In this document: positions 17,520 through 51,087 of the stretch, in pieces
Numbering within the stretch: the stretch's first letter is position 1
Layout: every line of letters begins with the position of its first letter
DNA from: a virus
Lineage: Duplodnaviria; Caudoviricetes
IMG/VR virus record: IMGVR_UViG_3300034375_009028
DNA length: 64,000 bases
Strand: one strand, 5' to 3'
The notes under the pieces: generated by a model
What the model was told of the DNA's origin: nothing
Seen by the model: the letters and a program-made list of their open reading frames with translations, nothing else
Database searches by the model: none
Program-made: the position numbers and the translations under genes

Positions 17520-20500
17520 TATGCCAAAGCAATTACTCTAAGATCCTTTATCCTTGGTGGATTTGACTGACTTGTAGATGAACCAATAATTTTGATACTA
17601 AAATATCTAAACTCTGGAAGATCATCTGCAGTAAATGTATAGTCATTAAATAATACATCATTAGTATTTGATGATAAAACATCAGTCTTAACAACTTTCT
17701 TATCTGATAAACCATCAGAAGCAGAAATATCAATCACATTTCCATTCACATCCAAATTATTGTATCCTGGGAAGGGATAATAAACTGGATCATTTTCTGT
17801 AGTATTTGAGATCGAATAAAATACTCTAACATCATTAAATATATTTACATGTGCAGAAAGTAGAACTTTTAAAGAAGTTGCTGGATTTTCCAATTCAACT
17901 GGTAAGTTACAATAAATGAATTCATTAGGATCAGAGTTTAAAGTAGAAGTTCTTGGATCATTTACATAGTCAGTTATTGGGGCATTTACCCTATTTGATG
18001 TTAGAATAACACCTATTCTATCAAGATCAACTACTGGAGAAACTCTAATATCAGCAGAAGATAGACTTAGCTCTAATTCTAATGATTTATTTGAAATTAA
18101 ATTTGTATTATGAATGGATTCATTGACCGTTGATGTTATTAATCTTGGTTCTGTAAAATAATTAGTTTCATCTAAGGTAATGTCTACTATTGGACTTTCT
18201 AAGAACGATACTTCATTACCATCTACACTAGTTCCTGTTATACTCTTAAGTTTTGCCGTTACATTAGTTTCTGGCAGAACTAAAGTTTGTACAATAGGTC
18301 TCATTGATTCATACTGTATATTTTGAGTTGCATTTACAAGCTCACCACCATCAGATTTTGACTTACGAATGTAAAGTTTCTGTACACTTGGATCAGAATC
18401 TCTATTGATACCATTTTGAGATGTATCTAGTTTTATGTAATAAAAATCAAAACCTATAGATCTTGGAACAAGTGCATCTTGTAGATAATGTAGTTTGTTT
18501 ATTCTCCTTAAAGAAATACCATTATTTTCATATTTAAATACCGTAGTTTCTTCTGGATATGATATTGATTGTGTATTATCAATTTGCCTTGTAATTCCAG
18601 TTAAAGTTCCATTTGATATTCCAGTGTATGAAATAATCTCATCATTTATTAGAATGTACCCAGGATTTGTTGCACTAACTTCAATATTTTCAAATGTTGT
18701 GAAGTTTGTTGTGCTAGCAATACTAACAGGACCAGAGTCCGAGAAAGTATATTCTGCAGTCAGTGAAGTTGGTTCTATATCAGATCCTACTTCTGATAAC
18801 TGGACAACATTTGTTTTAGAATGCATTGCATGGTTTTTATGATTTACTTTAATATGTAAACCATCTTCAAATGGAGATGAAATCTCTATGTTTGAAATGA
18901 CAGAATCTGCTCCACCAGTATCAAAAATAGTAGTGGTTATTCCTAAAGAATTATCATATAGTAATGATTTTGATGTGTTATTCTCAAAATTACCCTGAAC
19001 ATTATCCACTACTAATTGATTAATTCCATTAATATTGGATATAGTAAATTGTGCATTTTTTCCTAAAGGTTGTGAACCAATACTATCAATAGTTACTACA
19101 TCACCTTGCTGATATCCAAATCCACCCGAATTAATAGTTGCTGCAATTGCAACTCCATTTGTACTCCCATCAGCGCCTATAGTAATATCTGCTGTTGCAT
19201 TTTTACCTAAACCACTTACCGATGTTAGAGATACTCCATTAAATGTAAAAGAAGAACCATCTGATGGAGTATATCCAATTCCAGCATTTGTTATGGTTAA
19301 TTGTCCAGAAGCAGATCCACCATATCCAACAACATCACCCCTAACAAAACTATTGTTTTGTTGTTTAATAGTATTTCCAATATCTAAAGATGTAATATCT
19401 ATCACATTTGTAGTTGTTATAATTACTTTTCTGGATTCAAATTCTAAAGGATCTGGAACCAAAGTAGCTATTTGATCATTACCCAAATCCAACCTTGGGT
19501 TAAAGAATGATATAGTTCCTGGGGAATCATTATTAAATGTAGCAGCATATAGTCTAAACTTCAAATCTTCATATTGACTTGCAGTCCAGGTAGATCCATT
19601 TTGAGATTTAAATAGTGATCCCAAATCTGGTTGCTGCGAAACAAGAGTTTGTCTTGATTCTTCTTGAAGTAATGTTGATACGTCAATCTCTCCCATTTTT
19701 GAAATCCAAACAGTATAATCATTTGAATCACTTAATAAAACTATCGCATATTCTTTATTACCTTCCAAATATATTGGGGATGGGAAGAATACTTCAGTTA
19801 CTGTTAAAGAATCTTCGGAAGTAAATACCTGTTGTGGATTTATGACAACTTCAGAAAATGGACAAACTTCATTTGTTGGATACCCATTAACCATAGGTCT
19901 TAATTGAACTGTAACTGGTATTATTGGATCTTTAGTTCTAAAGAATAGATCAACACTAGTTACAAATATACCATTAGTTTCACTAACTAAAAATGATTGT
20001 GCTAAAGGATCCCTATTTCGAGTTGACCTAATTAGTTGTCTTGCGAATCTTCCTGCACTGGGTGGATTTCTTCTGGGTGGATTTCTTTGACCTCTACGTC
20101 CTTGGTTCGGTGCTGGAGCGGGACGCCCACGACCAGCACTTACTGGTTGAGGAAAAACTTGTGGTCGTGGTGGCGGTGCTGGCGGTGGTGGTGGCGGCGG
20201 TGGCGGTGGATCTGGTATAAATCTTGATCTAGTTTCTTGGCTTCTATCTACTGCAGTAGTTACTTGAACATCTGGTACTGCTGGTCTTCTCTCTGTAGTA
20301 TCTACAACTTCAAATCTTGGTTTTCGTGTAGATCTTATAGTTTCTTGAACTGTATTCATAGTTCCAGAAGCAAAATATTGCTCTTCTCCAGAACTATCTA
20401 CAAGTCCTCCAATTTTTGTATTAGTTGAACTATTTGTTAGTCTAAAGACCTTTGTTCCTGCCTCAAAACTTGGATTTGAAGGTACATTTGGGTTTGGAAT

Positions 20501-41919: not shown

Positions 41920-42087
41920 TTAATCAAATAAAGGATCAAGTTCAATAAGTTCAGGGTCAATGTCTGCACCTGAATAAAATTGCTCAGATAGATCTTGGAT
42001 GATATCCGAGCAATCGTCGAATGAGAGGTTTTTGTAAATTACTCGACCATTATAGCATAAGTTATAACGGCCTTGTGAATTACTCAT
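41920..42087 (-). CDS. Hypothetical protein (MSNSQGRY...)
   Basis: Start re-assigned to the ATG overlapping the upstream TGA. Confidence 0.65.
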   Translation of the reverse strand: MSNSQGRYNLCYNGRVIYKNLSFDDCSDIIQDLSEQFYSGADIDPELIELDPLFD

Positions 42088-42872
42088 CAAATTACGCGAG
42101 TCTTTTCGTGTCCAACACGAATACGAGGATCGCACCAAGTCTCAATACCTGCTTCCTTTGCATCCAGACAGAAGGACACGTCCTCTCCACACATATCCTG
42201 AACTGCTCCAGATTCAAAGACTTGCATCTTAGGTGCGAACCAGGGGTACTCAAGACGCTCAAAGACGCCATGACGAATCATAACCCATCCAAAACCTGTA
42301 TAATCAACTGTGAATGGTTTACGACGCTTCGAGATGCTCTCCACAGTCTCGTGATTCATCACCCCACCATTACGGCGGAAGTCCTCTTCGTCCAACCAGT
42401 GGGCAACCGAGGTGGTTTGCCCATCCTCAGTAGCATACCAACCAGCGACAATCTCTCGCTCATCCTGAGCATTACCGTCTTTATCTGGTCCAGGTACTGC
42501 AAGATCGCACAGTTGCCAGAACTTTTGACTATTAAAAACAATGTCATTATCAATCCAAAGTTGATAATCATACTTCAATTTGCCGTCCCAGGGAATTTGA
42601 TTGGGTCCGCGCAACACGTTTGCACCAAGACACTTACAACGTGCAAAGTTAACCATCGATGAGTAGTCCTGTGAGATTTGGATACTCATGTTGTTTTGTA
42701 CAAGGTCAAAGCATAGTTGCACAAAACTCTTTAGGAATGTATAAGAACAACCGCGCCCAGGCAGACAGAACACAATGCTCTTGCCTTGCATACGCTCTTT
42801 AATTGCATCATAATCCCAGTCTTCCTTCGGCGCAGTCGGTGCTGCTGCCTTTACAGTAAATCCTTTTGCCAT
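42087..42872 (-). CDS. GT-A-fold glycosyltransferase-like protein
   Basis: VNFARCKCL, DYQLWIDNDIVF (DxD), VDYTGFGWVMI, GEDVSFC. Confidence 0.7.
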   Translation of the reverse strand: MAKGFTVKAAAPTAPKEDWDYDAIKERMQGKSIVFCLPGRGCSYTFLKSFVQLCFDLVQNNMSIQISQDYSSMVNFARCKCLGANVLRGPNQIPWDGKLKYDYQLWIDNDIVFNSQKFWQLCDLAVPGPDKDGNAQDEREIVAGWYATEDGQTTSVAHWLDEEDFRRNGGVMNHETVESISKRRKPFTVDYTGFGWVMIRHGVFERLEYPWFAPKMQVFESGAVQDMCGEDVSFCLDAKEAGIETWCDPRIRVGHEKTRVI

Positions 42873-42920
42873 TTTAGAATAATTCTCTCAGATCAATTTT
42901 AACAGTTTATATGTAGCAAG

Positions 42921-43088
42921 TCAATATGAAGATTCTGCCACCATGTCCTTATTTATCTCTAGTTTCTCATACTCATAATTCTCATCATCAAGATTGTCCC
43001 ACTTCTCACGGAATTCTTCTTCAGTTAATACTGCATATAAACATTGATTCCTTTTGTTATAAATGTGATAAACTGTCTGTGATTCCAT
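42921..43088 (-). CDS. Hypothetical protein (MESQTVYHIY...)
   Basis: Start re-assigned downstream of the 43099-43242 ORF. Confidence 0.6.
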   Translation of the reverse strand: MESQTVYHIYNKRNQCLYAVLTEEEFREKWDNLDDENYEYEKLEINKDMVAESSY

Positions 43089-43098
43089 ACAAAATTCA

Positions 43099-43242
43099 TT
43101 ATCGGAACGTATTATATATGACCATAATGAGAATTCCAATGCTAACTAAAAAACCCTTCGGGTGCTTCGCAATCCAATATGTAAAGATTACTCTCCACAT
43201 GTTCCAATAAGGTCTTCGGCGGCGCATCATAAAAATTCTCAT
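43099..43242 (-). CDS. 47-aa membrane peptide MRIFMMRRRRPYWNMWRVIFTYWIAKHPKGFLVSIGILIMVIYNTFR
   Basis: Manual translation; extended -10 (TGcTATAAT) at 43250-43258 upstream. Confidence 0.65.
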   Translation of the reverse strand: MRIFMMRRRRPYWNMWRVIFTYWIAKHPKGFLVSIGILIMVIYNTFR

Positions 43243-43445
43243 TGATTCTATTATAGCACCTTTTTACCCGAAAAATTTTCTGCGAGATTTTTTTATATAC
43301 CTTATAACACACACTCGAATTGTCACCTCTGTAGGTTAGAGGGACCCGCTCATTATAAACGCAGGGGGCCGCATTAGTATAACTTATCGATCGAATTAAC
43401 TGCCATAAGGAATGCTGATCAATGAAATGTGTCCGCACGAACAAT

Positions 43446-43473
43446 AAAAAACCCCCGCACGAATGCAGGGGTT
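43446..43473 (-). terminator. Intrinsic terminator with a UUCG loop
   Basis: AACCCCTGCA-TTCG-TGCGGGGGTT followed by a T-run on the minus strand. Confidence 0.85.
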
Positions 43474-43489
43474 AAGTATACCTAACTCA

Positions 43490-43577
43490 CGGGTCGCTGG
43501 GTATAAAGAACTCAGCGACTCTAAGTGTTGCTCTCACGCATAAAAGGGTCGCTGAGTTCTTTATACCCAGCGACCCG
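43490..43577. repeat. Perfect 30-bp inverted repeat with a 28-nt spacer; each arm is itself an imperfect palindrome
   Basis: CGGGTCGCTGGGTATAAAGAACTCAGCGAC (43490-43519) is the exact reverse complement of 43548-43577. Confidence 0.95.
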
Positions 43578-43588
43578 CTAAATGTAAC

Positions 43589-43846
43589 TTAGTGTGCCAT
43601 TACGATGTAACGGAAGAATGTACCTTCTGCCAATTCTTCATCACTAGCGTCACAAATAGCAGTCCACGCAGGAACACTATTCGGACAATATACATCAACA
43701 GAATCTACAACGTCATCAGGAATAGCGTCAATTGTTGCTCCAAACCGCGCCCATAGTGTGCGGTTGCTAAGATCAAAATCGAACGATTCATCAATCGCAG
43801 CAATCCAATCGGTTTCAGATTGCAGTTCGGAGATGGTAAGTGCCAT
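43589..43846 (-). CDS. Acidic hypothetical early protein
   Basis: 85-aa ORF. Confidence 0.7.
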   Translation of the reverse strand: MALTISELQSETDWIAAIDESFDFDLSNRTLWARFGATIDAIPDDVVDSVDVYCPNSVPAWTAICDASDEELAEGTFFRYIVMAH

Positions 43847-43901
43847 GAGAATTGAAAGAATCAGGGTGTGAGATAAGGGGGACGATTGTCCCCCGATTGT
43901 T

Positions 43902-44036
43902 CTATTCTTCGGGACCGAAAGCGCACTCTAGAGAGTACATTTCCAGTTCCTGATCATCATCATAAACTGCCTGCCAATCCTCATCAGTGGGAGTGTAGAT
44001 TTCTTCAATCTGCTGCTGATCAGTGAAAGGATTCAT
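43902..44036 (-). CDS. 44-aa acidic peptide (MNPFTDQQQIEEIY...)
   Basis: Manual translation; own promoter (TATCAT at 44062-44067). Confidence 0.65.
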   Translation of the reverse strand: MNPFTDQQQIEEIYTPTDEDWQAVYDDDQELEMYSLECAFGPEE

Positions 44037-44061
44037 GGGGTTGTCTGTGTGGGACTTGATC

Positions 44062-44097
44062 ATGATAGCGACTAGGGGGGCACCCCGTAGGGTGCCC
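44062..44097 (-). promoter_or_regulatory. Early promoter (-10 TATCAT) with an 8-bp palindrome GGGCACCC-tacg-GGGTGCCC over the -35 zone
   Basis: Direct reading. Confidence 0.6.
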
Positions 44098-44108
44098 GTT
44101 ACCTTTGT

Positions 44109-44390
44109 TCACACTACAGCGGCGGCGATCAGATCACGCTTGCGACGGGTGGAGGGCATGGAAAACCAGAGGTCCCGCTTGCCAGTTTTCTGATTTCGGG
44201 TTGCTGCCAGTTGCCCACGGGTTTCCAGATCCACCAGCACGGCGTGGATGGTGCCCTTGTGGCGCTTAGGATCAAGACCCATGGCGCGAACTAGGTCGGT
44301 GCCTGTCATCGGACCTTTCTTGATCAGGATGCTGCGGGCAGCGATGCGGATCGCGGTGTGGAAGCAACGGTCGATTGCGGTGATGATCAT
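44109..44390 (-). CDS. Winged helix-turn-helix-like protein
   Basis: ILIKKGPMTGTDLVRAMGL...IHAVLVDLETRGQL...LWF helix-helix-helix-wing pattern. Confidence 0.55.
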   Translation of the reverse strand: MIITAIDRCFHTAIRIAARSILIKKGPMTGTDLVRAMGLDPKRHKGTIHAVLVDLETRGQLAATRNQKTGKRDLWFSMPSTRRKRDLIAAAVV

Positions 44391-44430
44391 GGTCTGGGTT
44401 GGGTTGTGCGGGTGTGTCCCGCGTGATCTA

Positions 44431-44459
44431 ATGATAACGCCTAGAGGGTCACCTGCCAG
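44431..44459 (-). promoter_or_regulatory. Early promoter CTGGCA-17-TATCAT
   Basis: Spacing; followed by a 5' hairpin GCGGG-acaca-CCCGC. Confidence 0.55.
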
Positions 44460-44605
44460 GTCGTCGGAGCGGGTTTGTCACAATCTGAAATAATGAAAAG
44501 TTGTGAGAGAAAGTGTTGCCATTCAGCATCAGTCATCACCACACAATTCTTTTCATCAAGTTCGCGTTGTGCGCGTTCGGAAAGTTTCAAGCGGAGATCT
44601 TTCAT
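44441..44605 (-). CDS. 54-aa hypothetical (MKDLRLKLSERAQ...)
   Basis: Manual translation. Confidence 0.55.
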   Translation of the reverse strand: MKDLRLKLSERAQRELDEKNCVVMTDAEWQHFLSQLFIISDCDKPAPTTWQVTL

Positions 44606-44615
44606 TGTTCTGATG

Positions 44616-44777
44616 TCAGTTTTTTGTGGACTTGAAAGTTACAACCTCAGCAGGAGATCCGCAGGAGCGATAGAAATCAACCATACGGTTTGCCTCATCA
44701 ATAGTGGCAAATGTTTGCTCTCTCCACTCACAAGAATTGTAGGGAGTTTGGTAGCGAATAGTGATGCCGATTGCCAT
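44616..44777 (-). CDS. 53-aa hypothetical (MAIGITIRYQTPYNSCEWR...)
   Basis: Manual translation; preceded by a GC hairpin. Confidence 0.7.
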   Translation of the reverse strand: MAIGITIRYQTPYNSCEWREQTFATIDEANRMVDFYRSCGSPAEVVTFKSTKN

Positions 44778-44828
44778 GATGTTAAGGTGAAGAATGGGAG
44801 GGGGATTGCTCCCCCTAAGTGTTTCAAA

Positions 44829-45074
44829 TCAGGCGGTGATTTCCATCCACTTGATCGGTTGAATAGTTCCCATTTTCCAGATGGTAACTTTTCTCCCGTG
44901 CAGTTCTACACTCCAATCGAATGCAGCATCCCTGGCAGAATCGAAATCAGAAAACATTTCGATCATTGCCTCGTTAAAGTTGAAATCAGGACCGATTGCC
45001 CACATGATGCTCGTTTGGGTTGTGCGAGGTCCGTTGCCTCGCTTGAATGTATATTTGCACCGATCGGGGTGCAT
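44829..45074 (-). CDS. Hypothetical protein
   Basis: 81-aa ORF; true start may be internal (MWAIG...). Confidence 0.7.
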   Translation of the reverse strand: MHPDRCKYTFKRGNGPRTTQTSIMWAIGPDFNFNEAMIEMFSDFDSARDAAFDWSVELHGRKVTIWKMGTIQPIKWMEITA

Positions 45075-45082
45075 TTCAAGCG

Positions 45083-45280
45083 TTAGTGTGCGCTTTGCCG
45101 ATTGGCACGTACCTTTGCAATTGTTTTCTTTATGTTTGCAATTGCGCGATGATCGCTGATAGTTTTGGCGGTGACAATTTGCACACCGTCAGCATCACGC
45201 CAAACATAATGTTTCTTCTCACGGACTAGTTCAAATCCGCAGGATTTCATGTACTCTTTTAGAATGTTTTTGGTTTTCAT
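45083..45280 (-). CDS. HicA-like (dsRBD-fold mRNA interferase-like) protein
   Basis: 65 aa, basic; GFELVREKKHYVWR..DG.QIV pattern with the His at the HicA catalytic position. Confidence 0.55.
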   Translation of the reverse strand: MKTKNILKEYMKSCGFELVREKKHYVWRDADGVQIVTAKTISDHRAIANIKKTIAKVRANRQSAH

Positions 45281-45315
45281 GATAAAGAATGGGGGGCAAT
45301 CGCCCCCCTGTTAGG

Positions 45316-45930
45316 TTAGATCAAACCCTTGTGAATGCGACGGTATGCAACCCATGTGATCGCTTGAATTTGCGATGCTAGGTGTACCTTACCTGTCACC
45401 TCAGAGATTAACTTAGCAGCGTCACGGTAAGCATCTTGAATCTTACCGAAAGTCTTGTCTGACATAGCAGGAACCGCTTTCAGGTTAGAAACACTGCCGT
45501 TCCAAACATTGTAGGCGTGACCATCAATGCAAGGCGTGTCACTTTTACCATCAGTGGCAATACAGAGAAAAAATGCGATAGTTTTGTTGCCACGCAATAC
45601 TTTCACAATTTGCTCCCTTTTAAGTTGCAAATCAAGAATCATGATCGCCTTATCTTTGTTTGCAGAGTAACTACAAACAGAGACAGAATTGTAGGGGATT
45701 TCATATGCCCAGGCACGCAACATTGCCTCAGCATCCTCTACATTTCTTTCCCACTTATTGTTTGGGGAAAGTGCAGCGATCACACCTGCCACGATGTCAG
45801 AATCGACACCATACTTTTCGCCAAGGTCAACACAAACGCCATAGGCGTTGCTGTACCATTGCAGACCTATTTGGCGATCGAGAGTGTTGCTCTGGAAATA
45901 CATCGCAACGATCGAATCAGTGTGTGCCAT
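45316..45930 (-). CDS. Conserved phage protein with HhH-glycosylase-like motifs
   Basis: AGVIAALSP..KW, GNKT.AF, CIDGHA, QIQAITWV. Confidence 0.55.
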   Translation of the reverse strand: MAHTDSIVAMYFQSNTLDRQIGLQWYSNAYGVCVDLGEKYGVDSDIVAGVIAALSPNNKWERNVEDAEAMLRAWAYEIPYNSVSVCSYSANKDKAIMILDLQLKREQIVKVLRGNKTIAFFLCIATDGKSDTPCIDGHAYNVWNGSVSNLKAVPAMSDKTFGKIQDAYRDAAKLISEVTGKVHLASQIQAITWVAYRRIHKGLI

Positions 45931-45956
45931 GTCGTGAAATGAATTTCGACCCTCAA

Positions 45957-45985
45957 AGTATTGCAGCGATCCGCTGCAAAGTCAA
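45957..45985 (-). promoter_or_regulatory. Promoter TTGACT-17-AATACT with a perfect palindrome TTGCAGCG-gat-CGCTGCAA in the spacer
   Basis: Direct reading. Confidence 0.75.
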
Positions 45986-46042
45986 CAGGTTTTAGATCAG
46001 CAACGCTTATCAGTGACATCAGAAATACTTATAGCCCAGGGG

Positions 46043-46091
46043 TTGACTTTAGGGGCACACTGCCCCTACGCTAGAGGGCGGGAGGGGTGGG
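46043..46091 (+). promoter_or_regulatory. Divergent plus-strand promoter TTGACT-18-TACGCT with a spacer palindrome, followed by the G4 motif GGGCGGGAGGGGTGGG
   Basis: TAGGGGCA-cac-TGCCCCTA at 46050-46068; G tracts at 46076-46091. Confidence 0.55.
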
Positions 46092-46109
46092 AAGCACAAT
46101 AAAAAATAT

Positions 46110-46138
46110 AAAAAAATACCACGCCGAAGGCGTGGTAT
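46110..46138 (-). terminator. Intrinsic terminator
   Basis: ATACCACGCC-ttc-GGCGTGGTAT followed by a T-run on the minus strand. Confidence 0.85.
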
Positions 46139-46196
46139 GATACAACCCACTTACTTACAAATCAATCACACAAACTATACAATAGGCATTCTCCGT

Positions 46197-46385
46197 TTAG
46201 TTTAACATCCAATGGGGGTCATTGTTGACATTAACCCAGAAGAAGTTGCGATTGTTTGCACTTCTTAAGAATAGCATGTCGCCTTTAACCTGTTCAATGA
46301 TACAGGTTCCGTCACATCCCATTAGATTAGCAAAACGGTTTTTTGCTTTGCTAGATTTTGGCGTGACGGTTGCCAGGGTGTCCAT
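46197..46385 (-). CDS. Hypothetical protein
   Basis: 62-aa ORF; TGATG coupling. Confidence 0.75.
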   Translation of the reverse strand: MDTLATVTPKSSKAKNRFANLMGCDGTCIIEQVKGDMLFLRSANNRNFFWVNVNNDPHWMLN

Positions 46386-46558
46386 CAGAATTCAATTGGT
46401 TGATCTGTTGGTTGAATTGTAGCACACTTTGTCATGTACTTATGAATCTTCTGATCCATTGATGGAGTCTCCTCAGAAGTAAGATTCTCAAGAATCCAGA
46501 GGATCTCAGAACCAGTTTGACCTTTCTTCAAAAGAGTAGTCATCATTTCAGTAGACAT
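46385..46558 (-). CDS. 57-aa hypothetical (MSTEMMTTLLKKGQTGSEILWIL...)
   Basis: Manual translation; stop overlaps the next ATG. Confidence 0.55.
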   Translation of the reverse strand: MSTEMMTTLLKKGQTGSEILWILENLTSEETPSMDQKIHKYMTKCATIQPTDQPIEF

Positions 46559-46607
46559 AATTGAATCCTTAGATGACGTGAATTTAGTCGAGATTAATTG
46601 ATTGATA

Positions 46608-46643
46608 CTCGACGAGATAATTTGATGATTACCTCGTCGAGAT
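46608..46643. repeat. Two CTCG(A/T)CGAGAT palindromes
   Basis: 46608-46618 and 46633-46643; partial copy at 46587-46594. Confidence 0.85.
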
Positions 46644-46652
46644 TTTCTACAC

Positions 46653-46913
46653 TCAGGCAGTCACGATTTGCAGAGTGCCATCCTTGATCTGGCAGTTGAT
46701 GAAGGAACCAACGCTCTCACCCAGGCGGATCACCTCATTGGCATCCTGTTGGAAGCGAGCAGGATCCTGCACAGTGTAGTTGTAATTGCGTCCGCCCTTA
46801 AAGGTCACGGTCACGTTACCATCATCCATGATGCTCAGGGCATCAAGGGCAGAGGAGGTGAAGGTGGAGACTTCCAGAGCGGTAGGAGCAACAGGGGTAG
46901 CAGTCATGATCAT
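46653..46913 (-). CDS. KTSC-like domain protein
   Basis: TSSALDAL...VTVTFKGGRNYNY...GESVGSFINCQIK. Confidence 0.6.
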   Translation of the reverse strand: MIMTATPVAPTALEVSTFTSSALDALSIMDDGNVTVTFKGGRNYNYTVQDPARFQQDANEVIRLGESVGSFINCQIKDGTLQIVTA

Positions 46914-46975
46914 AAAAAAATAAAGGTTTGAGTGAAGTGTTTTGAGCGGGATGCTTCACCCCCGCTGATGCAATC

Positions 46976-47022
46976 AGTATAGCATGGACTGGTTGGGGGG
47001 TGGAACCCCCCTTGTGCCAGTT
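46976..47022 (-). promoter_or_regulatory. Early promoter: AACTGGCACA upstream box, G6-TTCCA-C6 palindrome, -10 TATACT
   Basis: Direct reading. Confidence 0.7.
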
Positions 47023-47273
47023 TAGAGATCGGTCAGCATCTCATCCAGGGCAGCGGTGTCGATGGTGGGATCCATCCAGCGAGCACCATCAGGAGTCATC
47101 TGACCCCACATGATTTCCAGACGGGGAATCAGGGAGTCGTAGGAGTCATAACGCTGAGCGACCCGATAGGTTTCGTAGTCGTTCTGAATCCAGAGGGACA
47201 CGTTCCAGGTTGCCCAGTTCTTCCAACCGTTGAAGTCGGTGCGCTCAGGGATCAGAGAAGTGAGGCGGTCCAT
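47022..47273 (-). CDS. Conserved phage hypothetical (NGWxNWxTWNVxLW family)
   Basis: 83-aa ORF with its own promoter. Confidence 0.75.
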   Translation of the reverse strand: MDRLTSLIPERTDFNGWKNWATWNVSLWIQNDYETYRVAQRYDSYDSLIPRLEIMWGQMTPDGARWMDPTIDTAALDEMLTDL

Positions 47274-47282
47274 GTGTTTGTT

Positions 47283-47328
47283 TGAACTGAGGTCACAATA
47301 GGACGGATGGGGGGCAGAGTCAACCCCC
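47283..47328 (-). promoter_or_regulatory. Promoter TTGACT-17-TATTGT, -35 inside G5...C5, then CAGTTCA
   Basis: Direct reading. Confidence 0.8.
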
Positions 47329-47335
47329 TGACTGA

Positions 47336-47518
47336 TTAGTTTTCCTGATCCTCCAACAGTTCAGGATAATAATCTTTAATCTCAGTGATTAGTTCTTCTT
47401 GAGTGTAATCAGTGAGATTTTCTACCAATGTGTCATAAACAAAACATTCCATTGTTTTCATGTCCATGCTATCCAGCAGTTGCTGAGCATAGGAATGAAT
47501 CAGATCTTCTTTGTTCAT
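47336..47518 (-). CDS. Acidic hypothetical protein
   Basis: 60-aa ORF. Confidence 0.7.
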   Translation of the reverse strand: MNKEDLIHSYAQQLLDSMDMKTMECFVYDTLVENLTDYTQEELITEIKDYYPELLEDQEN

Positions 47519-47519
47519 G

Positions 47520-47720
47520 TCAGAATGAGAGGTAGGGATGATCAGAGTCTAACTCCTGATTGGTGTCGGATGCGGTGAGAAGTGTTGTGATGGGATAATA
47601 CTCATCAGCATCTGGATCATACACCATAGGAGTGCAGTCTAGTTGCTCTGCTGTCATAGACTGTAACATGATCAAAAGATCTTTGTAAGTCTGACAACCG
47701 TAGGGTGCATTAGGTGTCAT
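47520..47720 (-). CDS. Hypothetical protein (MTPNAPYG...)
   Basis: Start re-assigned to the ATGA overlap. Confidence 0.65.
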   Translation of the reverse strand: MTPNAPYGCQTYKDLLIMLQSMTAEQLDCTPMVYDPDADEYYPITTLLTASDTNQELDSDHPYLSF

Positions 47721-47932
47721 TTGAGAATAATGCGATAATCTACAGATTTGACGCACCATCCTGATGCAGTGCTGATCTCATCCATGAGATCTTCTTCATC
47801 ATCAGCATCCCAGAATTGACCGACATAAACATCACTAAGACGTTCTTCTGTCATGATCTGATCTGATTCTGACCAATCATCCTCACAATCGAGAGAACAA
47901 TCGAATTGAATTGAAGTGATTTGATACTTCAT
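47717..47932 (-). CDS. Acidic hypothetical (MKYQITSIQFD...)
   Basis: Start re-assigned to the ATGA overlap. Confidence 0.7.
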   Translation of the reverse strand: MKYQITSIQFDCSLDCEDDWSESDQIMTEERLSDVYVGQFWDADDEEDLMDEISTASGWCVKSVDYRIILK

Positions 47933-48063
47933 GATACTTGCGTGCGCGTCTCGTCGAGATTTTCTGAACAAAGAAATTCTAGCATGTAGTAATCTACCGT
48001 GACTTCTTTCGCCGCGGCCAATTCCTCAAGAGCAGAGTCAAATGCAGCGTCAAGTTCGTTCAT
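47929..48063 (-). CDS. 44-aa hypothetical (MNELDAAFDSALEELAAAKEVTVDYYMLEF...)
   Basis: Manual translation; own promoter. Confidence 0.7.
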   Translation of the reverse strand: MNELDAAFDSALEELAAAKEVTVDYYMLEFLCSENLDETRTQVS

Positions 48064-48073
48064 TGGAGTGGTG

Positions 48074-48144
48074 TGAACTGAAGTAATTATTGCACCCCCC
48101 AGGTGGTTCTGGGGGGATTGGTGGACAGTGCTCAGACCGTCACA
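48074..48144 (-). promoter_or_regulatory. Early promoter: TGTGACG-N9-CTGTCCAC box, CCCCCCAG-aaccac-CTGGGGGG palindrome, -10 AATAAT, CAGTTCA
   Basis: Direct reading. Confidence 0.7.
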
Positions 48145-48653
48145 AGAGATCCTTTGCCAACAGTCAGTGGTTCCTCTGTAAGGAAGTCATACTCAGCGGT
48201 GTTAGTGTCACCCCATCCCAACTTCCAACACTGCCAACCATCACCAGGAGTGAACAGATAGCACCACTCTTCTCCACAATTACCACTGAGGAAGTCATCG
48301 AAGTCGCCAATCTTAGGGGGAGCATCCTCACCTCGCTCACTGTAATACAGGGGCGAAGGTGTTGCTTTCACTGGAGAATAGACCCAGTTGTCATCAGCAT
48401 CACGCATGTAATCGACGGTCTTTGTACCATCAGCATGGTGAATTGTTTGCTTCAACGGTGCAGATTCCCACATGTGGGTAGAGTGAAGCGAGGACATATC
48501 GCCACCGTTGATGAGTTCTTCTACCTGTTCTTTATAAAGGTAGTTGTCAATTAGTTTGCGACCAGTATACTGAATGTAACCGTCATAATGACAGTAAACA
48601 CTGATGATCTGATCAGGACCGAGGGCAAGACCGATGCGAGAGCGAGTTCCCAT
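48132..48653 (-). CDS. Conserved phage hypothetical (MGTRSRIG...SVYCHYDGY family)
   Basis: Start re-assigned downstream of the promoter at 48681-48708. Confidence 0.8.
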   Translation of the reverse strand: MGTRSRIGLALGPDQIISVYCHYDGYIQYTGRKLIDNYLYKEQVEELINGGDMSSLHSTHMWESAPLKQTIHHADGTKTVDYMRDADDNWVYSPVKATPSPLYYSERGEDAPPKIGDFDDFLSGNCGEEWCYLFTPGDGWQCWKLGWGDTNTAEYDFLTEEPLTVGKGSLVTV

Positions 48654-48668
48654 GGGTTGTGAGTGGGG

Positions 48669-48713
48669 TGAACTGGAATCAGTGTAGCAGATTTGGGGGT
48701 GGTGTCCACCCCC
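48669..48713 (-). promoter_or_regulatory. Promoter TGGACA-16-TACACT centred in GGGGGTGG-aca-CCACCCCC, then CAGTTCA
   Basis: Direct reading. Confidence 0.7.
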
Positions 48714-48721
48714 TGAGGGAA

Positions 48722-48895
48722 TCAGTAGCGAGAATCCTCCAAGGTCTCCTTGAAGACCTGACTGACCTCCTCCCAGTGGTAGTCCTTCAGAGGACCGCAC
48801 TGGTCTTCCATCCAATCATACACCATGCACCAGTCGGCGTCCATTTCTAGGACGAACTGAGGCAGGGACTGGAGAGCGGACTTAAAAGTGGTCAT
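48722..48895 (-). CDS. 57-aa hypothetical (MTTFKSALQSL...), paralog of 51611-51877
   Basis: Start re-assigned; shared FxSxxxxLxxFV...AD...YDWxxDQC pattern. Confidence 0.7.
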   Translation of the reverse strand: MTTFKSALQSLPQFVLEMDADWCMVYDWMEDQCGPLKDYHWEEVSQVFKETLEDSRY

Positions 48896-48906
48896 GACCC
48901 GTTGGG

Positions 48907-48978
48907 TGAACTGCACAAATATTACCAACCCCTCCAACCCCTGGCAACCGCTTCCGAACCACCTCACAGACTGTCACA
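48907..48978 (-). promoter_or_regulatory. Promoter TTGCCA-17-TAATAT with an upstream TGTGACAG box, then CAGTTCA
   Basis: Direct reading. Confidence 0.8.
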
Positions 48979-49105
48979 GGCACCTCTCACAGCGTTTTAA
49001 AAGTCGTTATAATCTATGGACAATCAGCACCAACGGCAGTGGGGTAACTGCCTGATCAATGCATCGTCACTCAACTTGCAATATTTTTTTATAAAAAACA
49101 TTAAG

Positions 49106-49153
49106 AAAAAACCCATTAATGTGTGCCATCCCACAAACACACACTAATGGGTT
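49106..49153 (-). terminator. Long-stem terminator-like hairpin
   Basis: AACCCATTA/TAATGGGTT plus TGTGTG/CACACA; T-rich tail on the minus strand. Confidence 0.6.
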
Positions 49154-49190
49154 ATTATAATATGTTAAGAAGTAGTTATGGTGTACCCAC

Positions 49191-49364
49191 TCACCAATTC
49201 GTAGCGTCTAGTTCTTCAACATATGCACTCACGGTCTCATCACCCTCCAGTTGGAACACGTCATCATAATTGATTTGATGAGCATCAAAATCGTCACGAA
49301 CTTCGAATTCTAAAGTAACACGAACTTTGCGCTTTTGTGCTGCGTGGTAAACTGAAGATGCCAT
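49191..49364 (-). CDS. 57-aa hypothetical (MASSVYHAAQKRKVRVTLEFEV...)
   Basis: Manual translation; TTGACG-17-TATAAT promoter at 49389-49417. Confidence 0.75.
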   Translation of the reverse strand: MASSVYHAAQKRKVRVTLEFEVRDDFDAHQINYDDVFQLEGDETVSAYVEELDATNW

Positions 49365-49494
49365 GAGAACCTTTGTGCGAACAGTGATATTATACTATGA
49401 GATTTAATATCCGTCAACGCATGAACGTGACAATCACGATGATATTTAGAATGTTATAATGATCTTATGATTGATATTATGATGATTCGCACAC

Positions 49495-49578
49495 ATCTCG
49501 TCGAGATTTATATGATTGATATATGATTGATGACGCACATCTCGTCGAGATTGTCAAGTGCGCGTCTCGTCGAGATTT
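49495..49578. repeat. Three (A/T)TCTCGTCGAGAT palindromes
   Basis: 49495-49507, 49539-49551, 49565-49576; the 21-mer GTGCGCGTCTCGTCGAGATTT also occurs at 47942-47962. Confidence 0.9.
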
Positions 49579-49611
49579 GTGAGACCCCTCATATATTTTT
49601 CTTCGCGGTTC

Positions 49612-49640
49612 TTGTATTTTTTTCGCGGTTGTGCTATAAT
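49612..49640 (+). promoter_or_regulatory. Plus-strand promoter TTGTAT-17-TATAAT with an extended -10 (TG)
   Basis: Direct reading; no plus-strand ORF follows. Confidence 0.7.
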
Positions 49641-49712
49641 ACGCGGTCCAAGATCACAAGGATCTAGAGGATCTAGAAGATTTATAAGAGATTTTAGATC
49701 ATATTTATAACA

Positions 49713-49763
49713 TTATCCACAGTAATTCATACCTTTTCCACAGAATACGCAGAGTTTTCCACA
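49713..49763 (+). promoter_or_regulatory. Three DnaA-box-type 9-mers at a 21-bp period (TTATCCACA, TTTTCCACA, TTTTCCACA)
   Basis: Start at 49713, 49734 and 49755, each followed by G; GATC/AT-rich tract upstream. Confidence 0.7.
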
Positions 49764-49876
49764 GTATGTCAGCAAAAGAACAAACAACACATATACATTT
49801 ATTTTAACATTTATAAGTTAAAAAAGCATTAAAAACAGGTAATTTCAGGTTAAATCTGCATATTATCAAATAGAAT

Positions 49877-50071
49877 TTAAAATCCCTTATTCTTCTTACT
49901 CACTGGTTCAATCACTTCAATATGACTTAACCATTTTGACTCAGTAATAAACCAATGATTCTGAGTATCCTCCCAGTTATCAAAAACAACTTTTTTTCCA
50001 TTCTGATGAATTACCACATAATGATGGCGATCATACGGAAGATGACTTGTTTGCTCAAATACTTTAGTCAT
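49877..50071 (-). CDS. Hypothetical protein
   Basis: 64-aa ORF. Confidence 0.75.
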   Translation of the reverse strand: MTKVFEQTSHLPYDRHHYVVIHQNGKKVVFDNWEDTQNHWFITESKWLSHIEVIEPVSKKNKGF

Positions 50072-50076
50072 AACAA

Positions 50077-51087
50077 TTAAACAGTTACAATGTTTGCCGA
50101 TGCAGTGCCAATCTTCAATGCAGTCTCAGAGAATGCAGAGATTGCTGGTGCAGTAATTGGTTTTAAGATTAAAATCTCTCTACAGTATAATAAGACAAAC
50201 CAATCAAGCATTTGGTATAGCATCTTATACTTCTTTGGTTTCTTTAGAATCTCATCACCATAATATCTTACAAAAATTTCTTTCACCTCGTCTATTATAT
50301 CATGGCGCGTAACTACTCGTCCAGGTAGAACACTCTTCCAATATTTGAGATAATACCTATCTGGTAAATCAGTAGAGACATAAAACACTGTATCATGAGA
50401 GTATTTCTTCATCTCTCGAAGATACACATCATCTGGTATATACTTCCATGTATCAGATACTGACTTCCATGGACAATACTTTATAAAATCTTCCTTTTGA
50501 CTTGGAGTTAAATGATTTAAATCATCCTCTGTCCAGTTGATACCATAATATCTTCTAACATGTACTCCAACATACTTCTTAAATACATTCTCTAAATCAA
50601 CACGAAGACCATCATAATGTAATGTAATTAATGATAATGGATTCTTTCCATAAGGATAATAACCTGTTCCTATTGGCGCACTGTTGATGAACATTAAATC
50701 ACTTAACTCATATGATGCAAATTCACGATTTAATAACCGATTAAACATTCCATTATCAACATGCCTAAAATGACCAATTCCAGTGAGGAACTTCTCTTTA
50801 CTCATAAAATATGTTTTAGGGAATTTTAAAAAATATGTCTCTGGATATTGATCTAAACAATAAACAATCTTATAATTCCATCCAGTAAATCGACCAATTA
50901 AAAATCCATGATGCCAAAAGTGTAAACGACTTCCAAATCCTGTATCTTGTATATCATTCTGATTATGAGATTCTAAATTGCTAAATGGTGAATTTTGACA
51001 ATTATAAAATGAATAATTAGGAATCTTCCATGCTTCTGGCATACCAGAGAATTGATATAACTCCATTAAAAATCGAATCTGTTTCAT
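50077..51087 (-). CDS. GT11/O-fucosyltransferase-like (GT-B) glycosyltransferase
   Basis: GFGSRL, VGVHVRR, FYVSTDLP, LDWFVLLYC. Confidence 0.65.
   Translation of the reverse strand: MKQIRFLMELYQFSGMPEAWKIPNYSFYNCQNSPFSNLESHNQNDIQDTGFGSRLHFWHHGFLIGRFTGWNYKIVYCLDQYPETYFLKFPKTYFMSKEKFLTGIGHFRHVDNGMFNRLLNREFASYELSDLMFINSAPIGTGYYPYGKNPLSLITLHYDGLRVDLENVFKKYVGVHVRRYYGINWTEDDLNHLTPSQKEDFIKYCPWKSVSDTWKYIPDDVYLREMKKYSHDTVFYVSTDLPDRYYLKYWKSVLPGRVVTRHDIIDEVKEIFVRYYGDEILKKPKKYKMLYQMLDWFVLLYCREILILKPITAPAISAFSETALKIGTASANIVTV

Follow-up and report, generated by a model that had tools for sequence, protein, structure and literature searches.

What are DnaA boxes doing in a gene-free gap of a T4-like phage genome? 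The question is raised by a stretch of 64,000 nucleotides (IMG/VR virus record IMGVR_UViG_3300034375_009028; the whole stretch is called the window here), in which three perfect, co-oriented boxes with an exact 21-bp period stand behind a promoter that opposes the neighbouring genes and ahead of a very AT-rich tract. Judged by its proteins, the window belongs to a T4-like cyanomyovirus genome: the baseplate wedge protein gp6 has 52% identity to the counterparts in P-TIM68 and S-SM2, and the terminase and baseplate proteins fall into the phage families that would be expected. The boxes were found in a slot of variable content within a gene-free control module, upstream of a gene for a 57-aa protein and of the gp25/gp6 baseplate block, and we regard this module as a candidate replication origin.

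Three DnaA boxes in exact phase

The three boxes, one TTATCCACAG and two copies of TTTTCCACAG (Table 1), were confirmed from the sequence with the orientation and the 21-bp period given in an earlier note on this DNA, which had been made from the letters and a list of open reading frames (ORFs) alone. They are also of the cyanobacterial DnaA type that the note had recognised and match the published consensus, TTTTCCACA, a species-specific cyanobacterial DnaA box for which in vitro binding has been shown for Cyanothece and Anabaena (PMC4674748). The note had further proposed to count TTWTNCACA against expectation; no surplus was present window-wide, with 7 found compared to 12 expected in a count that covers the 64-kb window and thus only part of the phage genome. 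Three of these seven fall within the 51 bp at 49713-49764. Estimated from base composition, one box has a probability of ~1e-5 per position, and two more at a fixed phase would arise by chance with a probability of <1e-7. Judged by the sequence, chance cannot account for three perfect boxes that share one orientation and an exact phase within 51 bp.

The boxes are followed by 113 bp with a GC content of 23% compared to 34% for the window overall. This tract ranks in the lowest 1-2% of the window for GC, its lowest 100-nt value (19%) falling in the bottom 1%. The roughly 100 bp of very AT-rich DNA that had been reported after the boxes is therefore real, and its position is kept in relatives. 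A conserved block (AAACAACACATATACATTTA; 49782-49801) was identified within this tract, and the same block is kept in S-SM2 and in three IMG/VR loci (L079, L116, L194).

The layout of box-N12-box-N3-7-inverted box, which is found in several relatives of the window, was searched for in bacteria using one genome per species and gave 51 exact matches compared to <1 expected. Twelve of the 51 lie beside dnaA or dnaN, and in 9 of the 10 loci showing both genes the match lies between them, the dnaA-dnaN spacer being the position of the origin region of Firmicutes. A Leptolyngbya chromosome carries three copies of TTTTCCACAG at 20/21 bp together with an inverted copy, which is almost the array of the window. 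As the layout recurs in dnaA-dnaN spacers and in cyanobacterial chromosomes, host DnaA very likely binds the three boxes of the window. Of the 51 matches (L201-L251), the other 39 were not beside dnaA or dnaN, and in Leptolyngbya (L241) and Kaiparowitsia (L210) the match stands beside guaA; matches of this kind could represent origins not yet recognised, sites regulated by DnaA or mobile elements.

A conserved module with a variable slot

A blastn search with 49000-50400 against GenBank phages returned no match at E 1e-5, and the 336-aa neighbour gene retrieved a single near-identical contig (L001) that is uninformative on conservation. The module being too diverged for a plain DNA search, relatives were reached via the flanking 57-aa protein, the gene for which is a conserved anchor directly downstream of the module on the gene strand and has homologs in 15 GenBank cyanophages and 233 IMG/VR stretches. 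We took 80 IMG/VR loci, chosen solely by this protein, 54 of which had enough upstream DNA. In other cyanophages the 57-aa gene always has a long stretch without genes on its upstream side, a few kb ahead of gp25/gp6, and the module was identified upstream of this gene in S-SM2, S-BM3 and Syn9 as well as in at least 44 of 50 IMG/VR relatives.

The module follows a constant order of promoter, AGAT(C/A)AC leader, one to five repeat units of ~30 nt with CACATTTATAAG, variable slot, (A)TATACATTTAAAAA...ACATTTTTAAT and finally the terminator of the preceding gene. The antisense promoter was recognisable in at least 44 of 50 relatives, usually with a perfect TTGACA, a 17-bp spacer and an extended -10 ((TG)nTAnnnT), and in most of them the leader lies 4-11 nt past the -10. 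The window has TTGTAT at 49612-49617, a 17-bp spacer and TGcTATAAT at 49632-49640; the plus-strand promoter opposing the gene direction that had been proposed from the letters stands at these coordinates and is homologous to the promoter of these relatives. The ATTTATAA-type motifs of the window correspond to the CACATTTATAAG repeat units found in relatives.

At least one perfect box was present in 18 of the 54 loci, at a distance of 200-390 bp from the start of the 57-aa gene, and forward boxes always had the same orientation as in the window. Two or more boxes were present in 11 loci, all 11 of which contain a 21-bp pair, and some loci have in addition a third box, placed at +11, or an inverted one 4-5 nt past the last box. 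With S-SM2, which also has a 21-bp pair and differing spacers, these loci show the conservation of phasing in relatives that the earlier note had proposed to check. The 9-mers remain perfect across lineages whose 12-nt spacers differ, a signature of selection on protein-binding sites. Across 69 non-redundant loci, 43 boxes were counted in 17 kb of slot compared to 7 in the 255 kb outside, a ~90-fold difference in density.

The S-SM2 module consists of an antisense TTGACA-17-TAGAAT promoter, the AGATCAC leader, a pair of TTTTCCACA boxes spaced by exactly 21 bp, an inverted but imperfect box, the block AAACAACGCATATACATTTA, an AT-rich run and the hairpin terminator of the preceding gene. TTWTCCACA occurs only 4 times in the 190.8 kb of the S-SM2 genome, and the two boxes of the module account for 2 of these. 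The module is also present in S-BM3 and Syn9, again with boxes. The promoter is kept in Bellamy and S-SRM01, together with the leader in Bellamy, and there is no perfect box in either. In both complete genomes searched (S-SM2, Bellamy) the promoter-plus-AGATCAC-leader pattern is single-copy. A peptide-coding reading of the boxes (34-aa ORF SSM2_086; L118:3697-3801) was rejected, as the frame is not conserved and meets a stop after three codons in the window (by eye); SSM2_086, annotated over the S-SM2 boxes, is probably not a gene.

The contents of the slot vary among relatives and consist of DnaA boxes, AT-rich palindromes (TTATTGA-N3-5-TCAATAA), CCCCACAGATAC-type repeats or a homing endonuclease gene. 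Two or three of the TTATTGA-N3-5-TCAATAA palindromes replace the boxes in L122, L135, L149, L160, L178, L180 and L181. These palindromes were tried as Fur boxes and rejected, with 4-8 mismatches to the E. coli 19-mer consensus and mostly no better a match than shuffled sequence. A GIY-YIG (with NUMOD) or HNH gene stands right after the promoter and leader in four loci (L150:1432-2184, L147:822-1607, L198:1288-2094 and L133:1673-2176, on the minus strand of the locus); judged by their placement, such genes look like independent insertions using the resident antisense promoter.

A candidate origin and its alternatives

The reading that we prefer, with a confidence falling a little short of even, is an origin role resembling T4 oriE/oriF, in which DnaA would help to melt the AT-rich tract or to fix the point at which the primer transcript stops. 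An orphan early promoter directed against the genes, short repeats, an AT tract, a baseplate position and homing endonucleases together make this the best reading. Early in infection, unmodified host RNA polymerase would fire the plus-strand promoter against the gene direction, and the transcript would pass the short repeats and the DnaA array to enter the 113-bp AT-rich tract. DnaA oligomerised on one helix face, its sites being two turns apart, would open the tract or stall the polymerase, and either the RNA or the opened DNA would prime phage replication. Such a scheme would be like that of T4 oriE/oriF/oriG with the addition of a host-initiator input.

The earlier note had likened the locus to promoter-made R-loop origins of T4. 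That part stands for oriF (uvsY) and oriG, where the transcript of the R-loop acts as primer, but the closest parallel is oriE, which needs an early-mode promoter and has a cluster of evenly spaced direct repeats found again at syntenic positions in its relatives (PMC3016281). For such a promoter the module offers a predicted, host sigma-70-like one whose sequence is kept in at least 44 of 50 relatives and whose activity is hinted at by unstranded RNA-library contigs. The repeats of the module (GGATCTAGA x2, 20-nt x2, palindrome x3) are unevenly spaced and unrelated in sequence to those of T4. In T4, oriE is located among the baseplate genes, with early transcription directed against the late baseplate transcripts and the homing endonuclease gene segD close by; relatives of the module likewise carry GIY-YIG/HNH endonuclease genes at the module. 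In contrast to the module, oriE has no DnaA boxes, and its early transcripts encode RepEA/RepEB whereas no ORF follows the module promoter. The likeness is at the level of features, and homology between oriE and the module cannot be assumed. With oriF/oriG the module shares a promoter that points into a downstream non-coding, candidate easily unwound tract (a likeness of geometry only); the promoters there are MotA-dependent middle promoters, whereas that of the module is host sigma-70-like, and T4 has no host initiator sites. Cyanomyoviruses are without MotA and AsiA (PMC2984593).

The module is similar to bacterial origins (cyanobacterial oriC and the dnaA-dnaN spacer of Clostridia) in its TTTTCCACA consensus, co-orientation, 21-bp phase and adjoining AT tract. 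It differs from these in having only three boxes, no dnaA or dnaN nearby and no recognised DnaA-trio or 13-mer, and in placing the array behind a strong promoter in a virus with its own replisome. Iteron-type origins with DnaA boxes (P1 oriR; F, pSC101, RK2, R6K) are built from short direct repeats, GATC-containing repeats and an AT-rich region, and the module combines all of these with its DnaA boxes. Unlike them, it is without an adjacent Rep-type initiator gene, its repeats are few and variable, and it belongs to a lytic T4-like phage.

Several observations weigh against an origin role with DnaA input. T4 origins work without DnaA, which makes the use of host DnaA by a T4-type phage unexpected, and T4-like cyanophages encode their own replisome. 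The module is kept without a perfect box in 36 of the 54 relatives, indicating that DnaA is not required for its core function; DnaA looks like an accessory or optional input that was acquired or kept by some lineages, including that of the window. The plus-strand promoter of the window matches only 3/6 positions of the -35, which is why a simple promoter scan did not list it. By eye, no DnaA-trio or 13-mer-like motif was seen on the strand matching the Clostridial origin L206, where TAG/TAA-type trios stand beside a box in a pattern that may not apply to cyanobacterial origins. GC skew, which is uninformative here because the phage genes run mostly one way, showed no switch at the module. Pfam and PHROG comparisons of the flanking genes gave no Rep-like match, the neighbours all being of unknown function, and on this annotation there is no initiator gene next to the module. 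A literature search found no cyanomyovirus replication data. Lastly, the RNA-library contigs described below are of unrecorded strand, and one of them (X16, 49261-49778) bridges the gap, possibly through read-through or DNA carry-over.

The main alternative, which we consider rather unlikely, is that the module is a DnaA-gated transcription switch with no origin. DnaA bound to the array would block or tune a non-coding antisense early transcript that meets the transcription of the preceding gene head-on, opposite the late-promoter-like TTATAAAT motifs, tying phage timing to the replication state of the host. In favour of a switch, the orientation of the boxes relative to the promoter is strictly conserved, and Schaefer and Messer are said to have found at asnC that DnaA-box complexes block RNA polymerase in E. 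coli in an orientation-dependent manner. The filling of the slot by other repeat or palindrome types in relatives, as for interchangeable regulator sites, is also in favour of a switch, and so are the relatives in which the module promoter drives homing-endonuclease genes and is thus an ordinary promoter. However, a switch leaves unexplained both the AT-rich tract with its conserved block, always found after the slot, and the copying of the bacterial origin-spacer layout. It would also act through an antisense RNA without known target or function, and the predicted fold of 49647-49880 was only weakly better than shuffled (z = -1.8) and is not convincing as a structured RNA.

It is improbable that the repeats are not DnaA sites and are bound by a phage protein or another host protein, or that they form a motif in a small RNA made from the plus-strand promoter. 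The conserved unit of the window boxes is 10 nt (TTWTCCACAG) and hence one base longer than the DnaA box, a promoter with a conserved 5' leader and no ORF fits a non-coding RNA gene, and the predicted RNA fold leaves the boxes unpaired. The boxes are nevertheless an exact match to the host consensus, and the same TTTTCCACAG arrays and spacing occur in cyanobacterial chromosomes and dnaA-dnaN spacers. Inverted copies, as found in relatives, are more readily understood for a DNA site than for an RNA motif, no Rfam family matched within the gap, and the sequence of the slot is not conserved across relatives.

A datA-like sink, in which the array would be multiplied on the phage genomes, titrate host DnaA and halt host initiation, appears quite improbable. 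The boxes are perfect high-affinity consensus sites that phage copy number would amplify, and like E. coli datA, which titrates or inactivates DnaA, they form a small cluster of high-affinity boxes outside oriC. In contrast, datA needs an IHF site and is without a promoter or unwinding tract, whereas the module has a conserved promoter and an AT tract, and titration needs no strict promoter link, fixed orientation or AT tract. There are just 2-3 boxes per genome, most relatives have none, and T4-like phages in any case put the host genome out of action by degradation or silencing. That the array has no current function and is a host oriC relic or a chance repeat is very improbable, as the box-free majority of relatives and the varying copy number of the adjoining GGATCTAGA repeat stand against perfect 9-mers in exact phase in at least 11 lineages with diverged spacers, the ~90-fold enrichment in the slot and the lack of any host-like flanking sequence seen.

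The origin reading can be extended to the group as a whole. It is possible, although doubtful, that T4-like cyanophages start replication at one conserved promoter-primed origin with the slot as an exchangeable socket for host factors, which would hold a DnaA array in the lineage of the window and in ~1/3 of relatives, so that a lytic phage with its own replisome would still rely on the host initiator for the opening or timing of its origin. No cyanomyovirus origin is known from experimental mapping, the searched literature mentioning only the single origin predicted computationally in Syn9 (PMC2984593), and no work linking cyanophages to DnaA boxes or iterons was found in it. A single-copy module with a precise address is a testable candidate in the culturable S-SM2, S-BM3 and Syn9, and the exchangeable slot is a natural experiment in which relatives with and without boxes can be compared. 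T4-like cyanophages are among the most abundant viruses of lakes and oceans and, if the extended reading is true, phage replication would be tied to host physiology in organisms important for global primary production.

Transcripts and further features of the gap

Four freshwater metatranscriptome libraries contain parts of the region, as contigs without strand. The best-covered part is the 57-aa gene, with contigs running from 49130/49187 to 49355/49373 at a depth of 13-211. In three RNA runs the contigs stop at 49355-49373, a short way downstream of the start expected for the minus-strand promoter, and a hairpin terminator (49153-49110; 18-bp stem) follows the 57-aa gene. This coverage fits a short, highly expressed early mRNA reaching from the minus-strand promoter to the hairpin, and the 57-aa gene thus appears to form a transcription unit of its own. 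Three further contigs of low depth (X15, X17, X18) have their left ends 10-70 nt past the predicted plus-strand start. As these are unstranded and DNA carry-over is possible, they are a weak hint of the plus-strand transcript that we infer from the promoter. The same three contigs leave 49374-49656 uncovered; this absence is not evidence, and X16 bridges the stretch.

The gap (49365-49876; 512 bp) lies between two minus-strand genes, those for the 57-aa protein and for a DUF7441 protein. The ORF list bears out the earlier description of the gap as ORF-free, with no credible ORF at 49365-49876 and only frames of 46-50 aa with TTG/GTG starts that begin upstream of the plus-strand promoter. The DUF7441 gene is absent as a neighbour at the homologous site in S-SM2 and Bellamy, and the two border genes are not adjacent in other phages. 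The promoter of the 57-aa gene, read from 49417 to 49389, stands back to back with the plus-strand promoter. Neither this promoter nor the three ATCTCGTCGAGAT palindromes between the two promoters had been mentioned in the earlier note.

Table 1. Coordinates of the module, its border genes and the RNA-library contigs that overlap it.
Feature	Position	Strand	Basis or detail
Gene for 57-aa acidic protein (phrog_12516), function unknown	49191..49364	-	ORF list; PHROG match 7e-18
Near-consensus sigma-70-type promoter of 57-aa gene, TTGACG-17-TATAAT	49389..49417	-	Promoter scan, 11/12 matches
Three palindromes ATCTCG-T-CGAGAT between the two promoters	49495..49576 (cores 49496-49506, 49540-49550, 49565-49575)		Repeat analysis
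Two 20-nt direct repeats (TTTTYTTCGCGGTT...), overlapping -35 and spacer of plus-strand promoter	49597..49636	+	Repeat family D4
Predicted antisense early-type promoter, TTGTAT-17-TGcTATAAT	49612..49640	+	Sequence; expected start near 49647
Conserved leader AAGATCACA with first GATC, at or near predicted transcript start	49650..49658	+	AGAT(C/A)AC in most relatives
Tandem GGATCTAGA x2 with second and third GATC	49660..49677	+	Sequence
Low-depth RNA-library contigs, unstranded	49657..49990		X15 49657-49990, X17 49669-49882, X18 49720-49871
ATTTATAA-type motifs (AGATTTATAAGAG, CATATTTATAACA) and fourth GATC	49678..49712	+	Repeat families D10, D11
Three co-oriented DnaA boxes, TTATCCACAG (49713), TTTTCCACAG (49734), TTTTCCACAG (49755)	49713..49764	+	TTWTCCACAG, exact 21-bp period
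AT-rich tract, candidate unwinding element	49764/49765..49876		23% GC, 113 bp
DUF7441 gene, 64 aa, right-hand border of gap	49877..50071	-	Pfam PF24225 3.8e-21; phrog_897

The four GATC sites that had been singled out between promoter and boxes are present (49652, 49661, 49670, 49697). Under a Poisson model, four in 50 bp has a probability of ~1e-4 per 50-bp window, with ~0.13 such cases expected across the whole stretch. Two of the sites come from the variable GGATCTAGA repeat and one from the conserved AGATCAC leader, and judged from the sequence the cluster is better explained by a tandem repeat of varying copy number together with this leader than as a cluster of Dam sites. The two tandem copies of GGATCTAGA are present as reported, and contig L001 differs from the window only by one GGATCTAGA unit and one base; with a single copy in L001, the number of this 9-bp repeat is not fixed. 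In the predicted RNA fold, the third and fourth GATC pair in a small hairpin. On the gene strand the ATTTATAA-type motifs read TTATAAAT, a point on which the earlier note was silent, and resemble a late promoter, the cyanophage late-promoter consensus being NATAAATA (PMC2984593). CGCGGT occurs again at 49642-49647, just past the -10 hexamer of the plus-strand promoter.

The palindromes between the promoters belong to a family, TCTCG(T/A)CGAGA, with 6 copies in the window (46607-46642, 47949-47959, 49496-49575) compared to 0.27 expected. At the homologous site ATCTCGACGAG occurs five times in S-SRM01, variants of ATCTAGACTAGAT are found in S-BM3, and three IMG/VR loci (L126, L130, L132) contain more than 10 ATCTCGA/ATCTAGT units each. 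The family is probably the site of a phage DNA-binding protein. The copy at 47949 is just upstream of the ATG of a small gene, within a 21-nt string common to the module.

DNA of the window was found in 14 freshwater metagenome runs, and the host of the phage is therefore probably a freshwater picocyanobacterium. Small early-type genes at 42000-50000 have a GC content of 43-48%, with a maximum of 57% near 44 kb, compared to 27-37% outside this block, and the drop to the usual level occurs at the module.

Box clusters were also observed in other viruses. In S-PM2 (NC_006820) the 34 bp at 19231-19264 contain three perfect TTTTCCACA boxes, one of them forward and two reverse, which overlap annotated tRNA-Asn and tRNA-Leu genes, and either the tRNA calls or the box reading is doubtful. 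Across IMG/VR, 161 pairs of TTTTCCACA were counted, 49 of them spaced by 11-12 bp and 43 by 21-22 bp; these two sharp peaks also speak for the boxes being DnaA sites. Arrays of TTTTCCACA(G) with a spacing of 11-12 or 21-22 bp are present in many viral contigs of IMG/VR (L002-L117) that do not belong to the module family, and in L032, L096 and L053 units of AGTTTTCCACAGG adjoin TTATAAG motifs.

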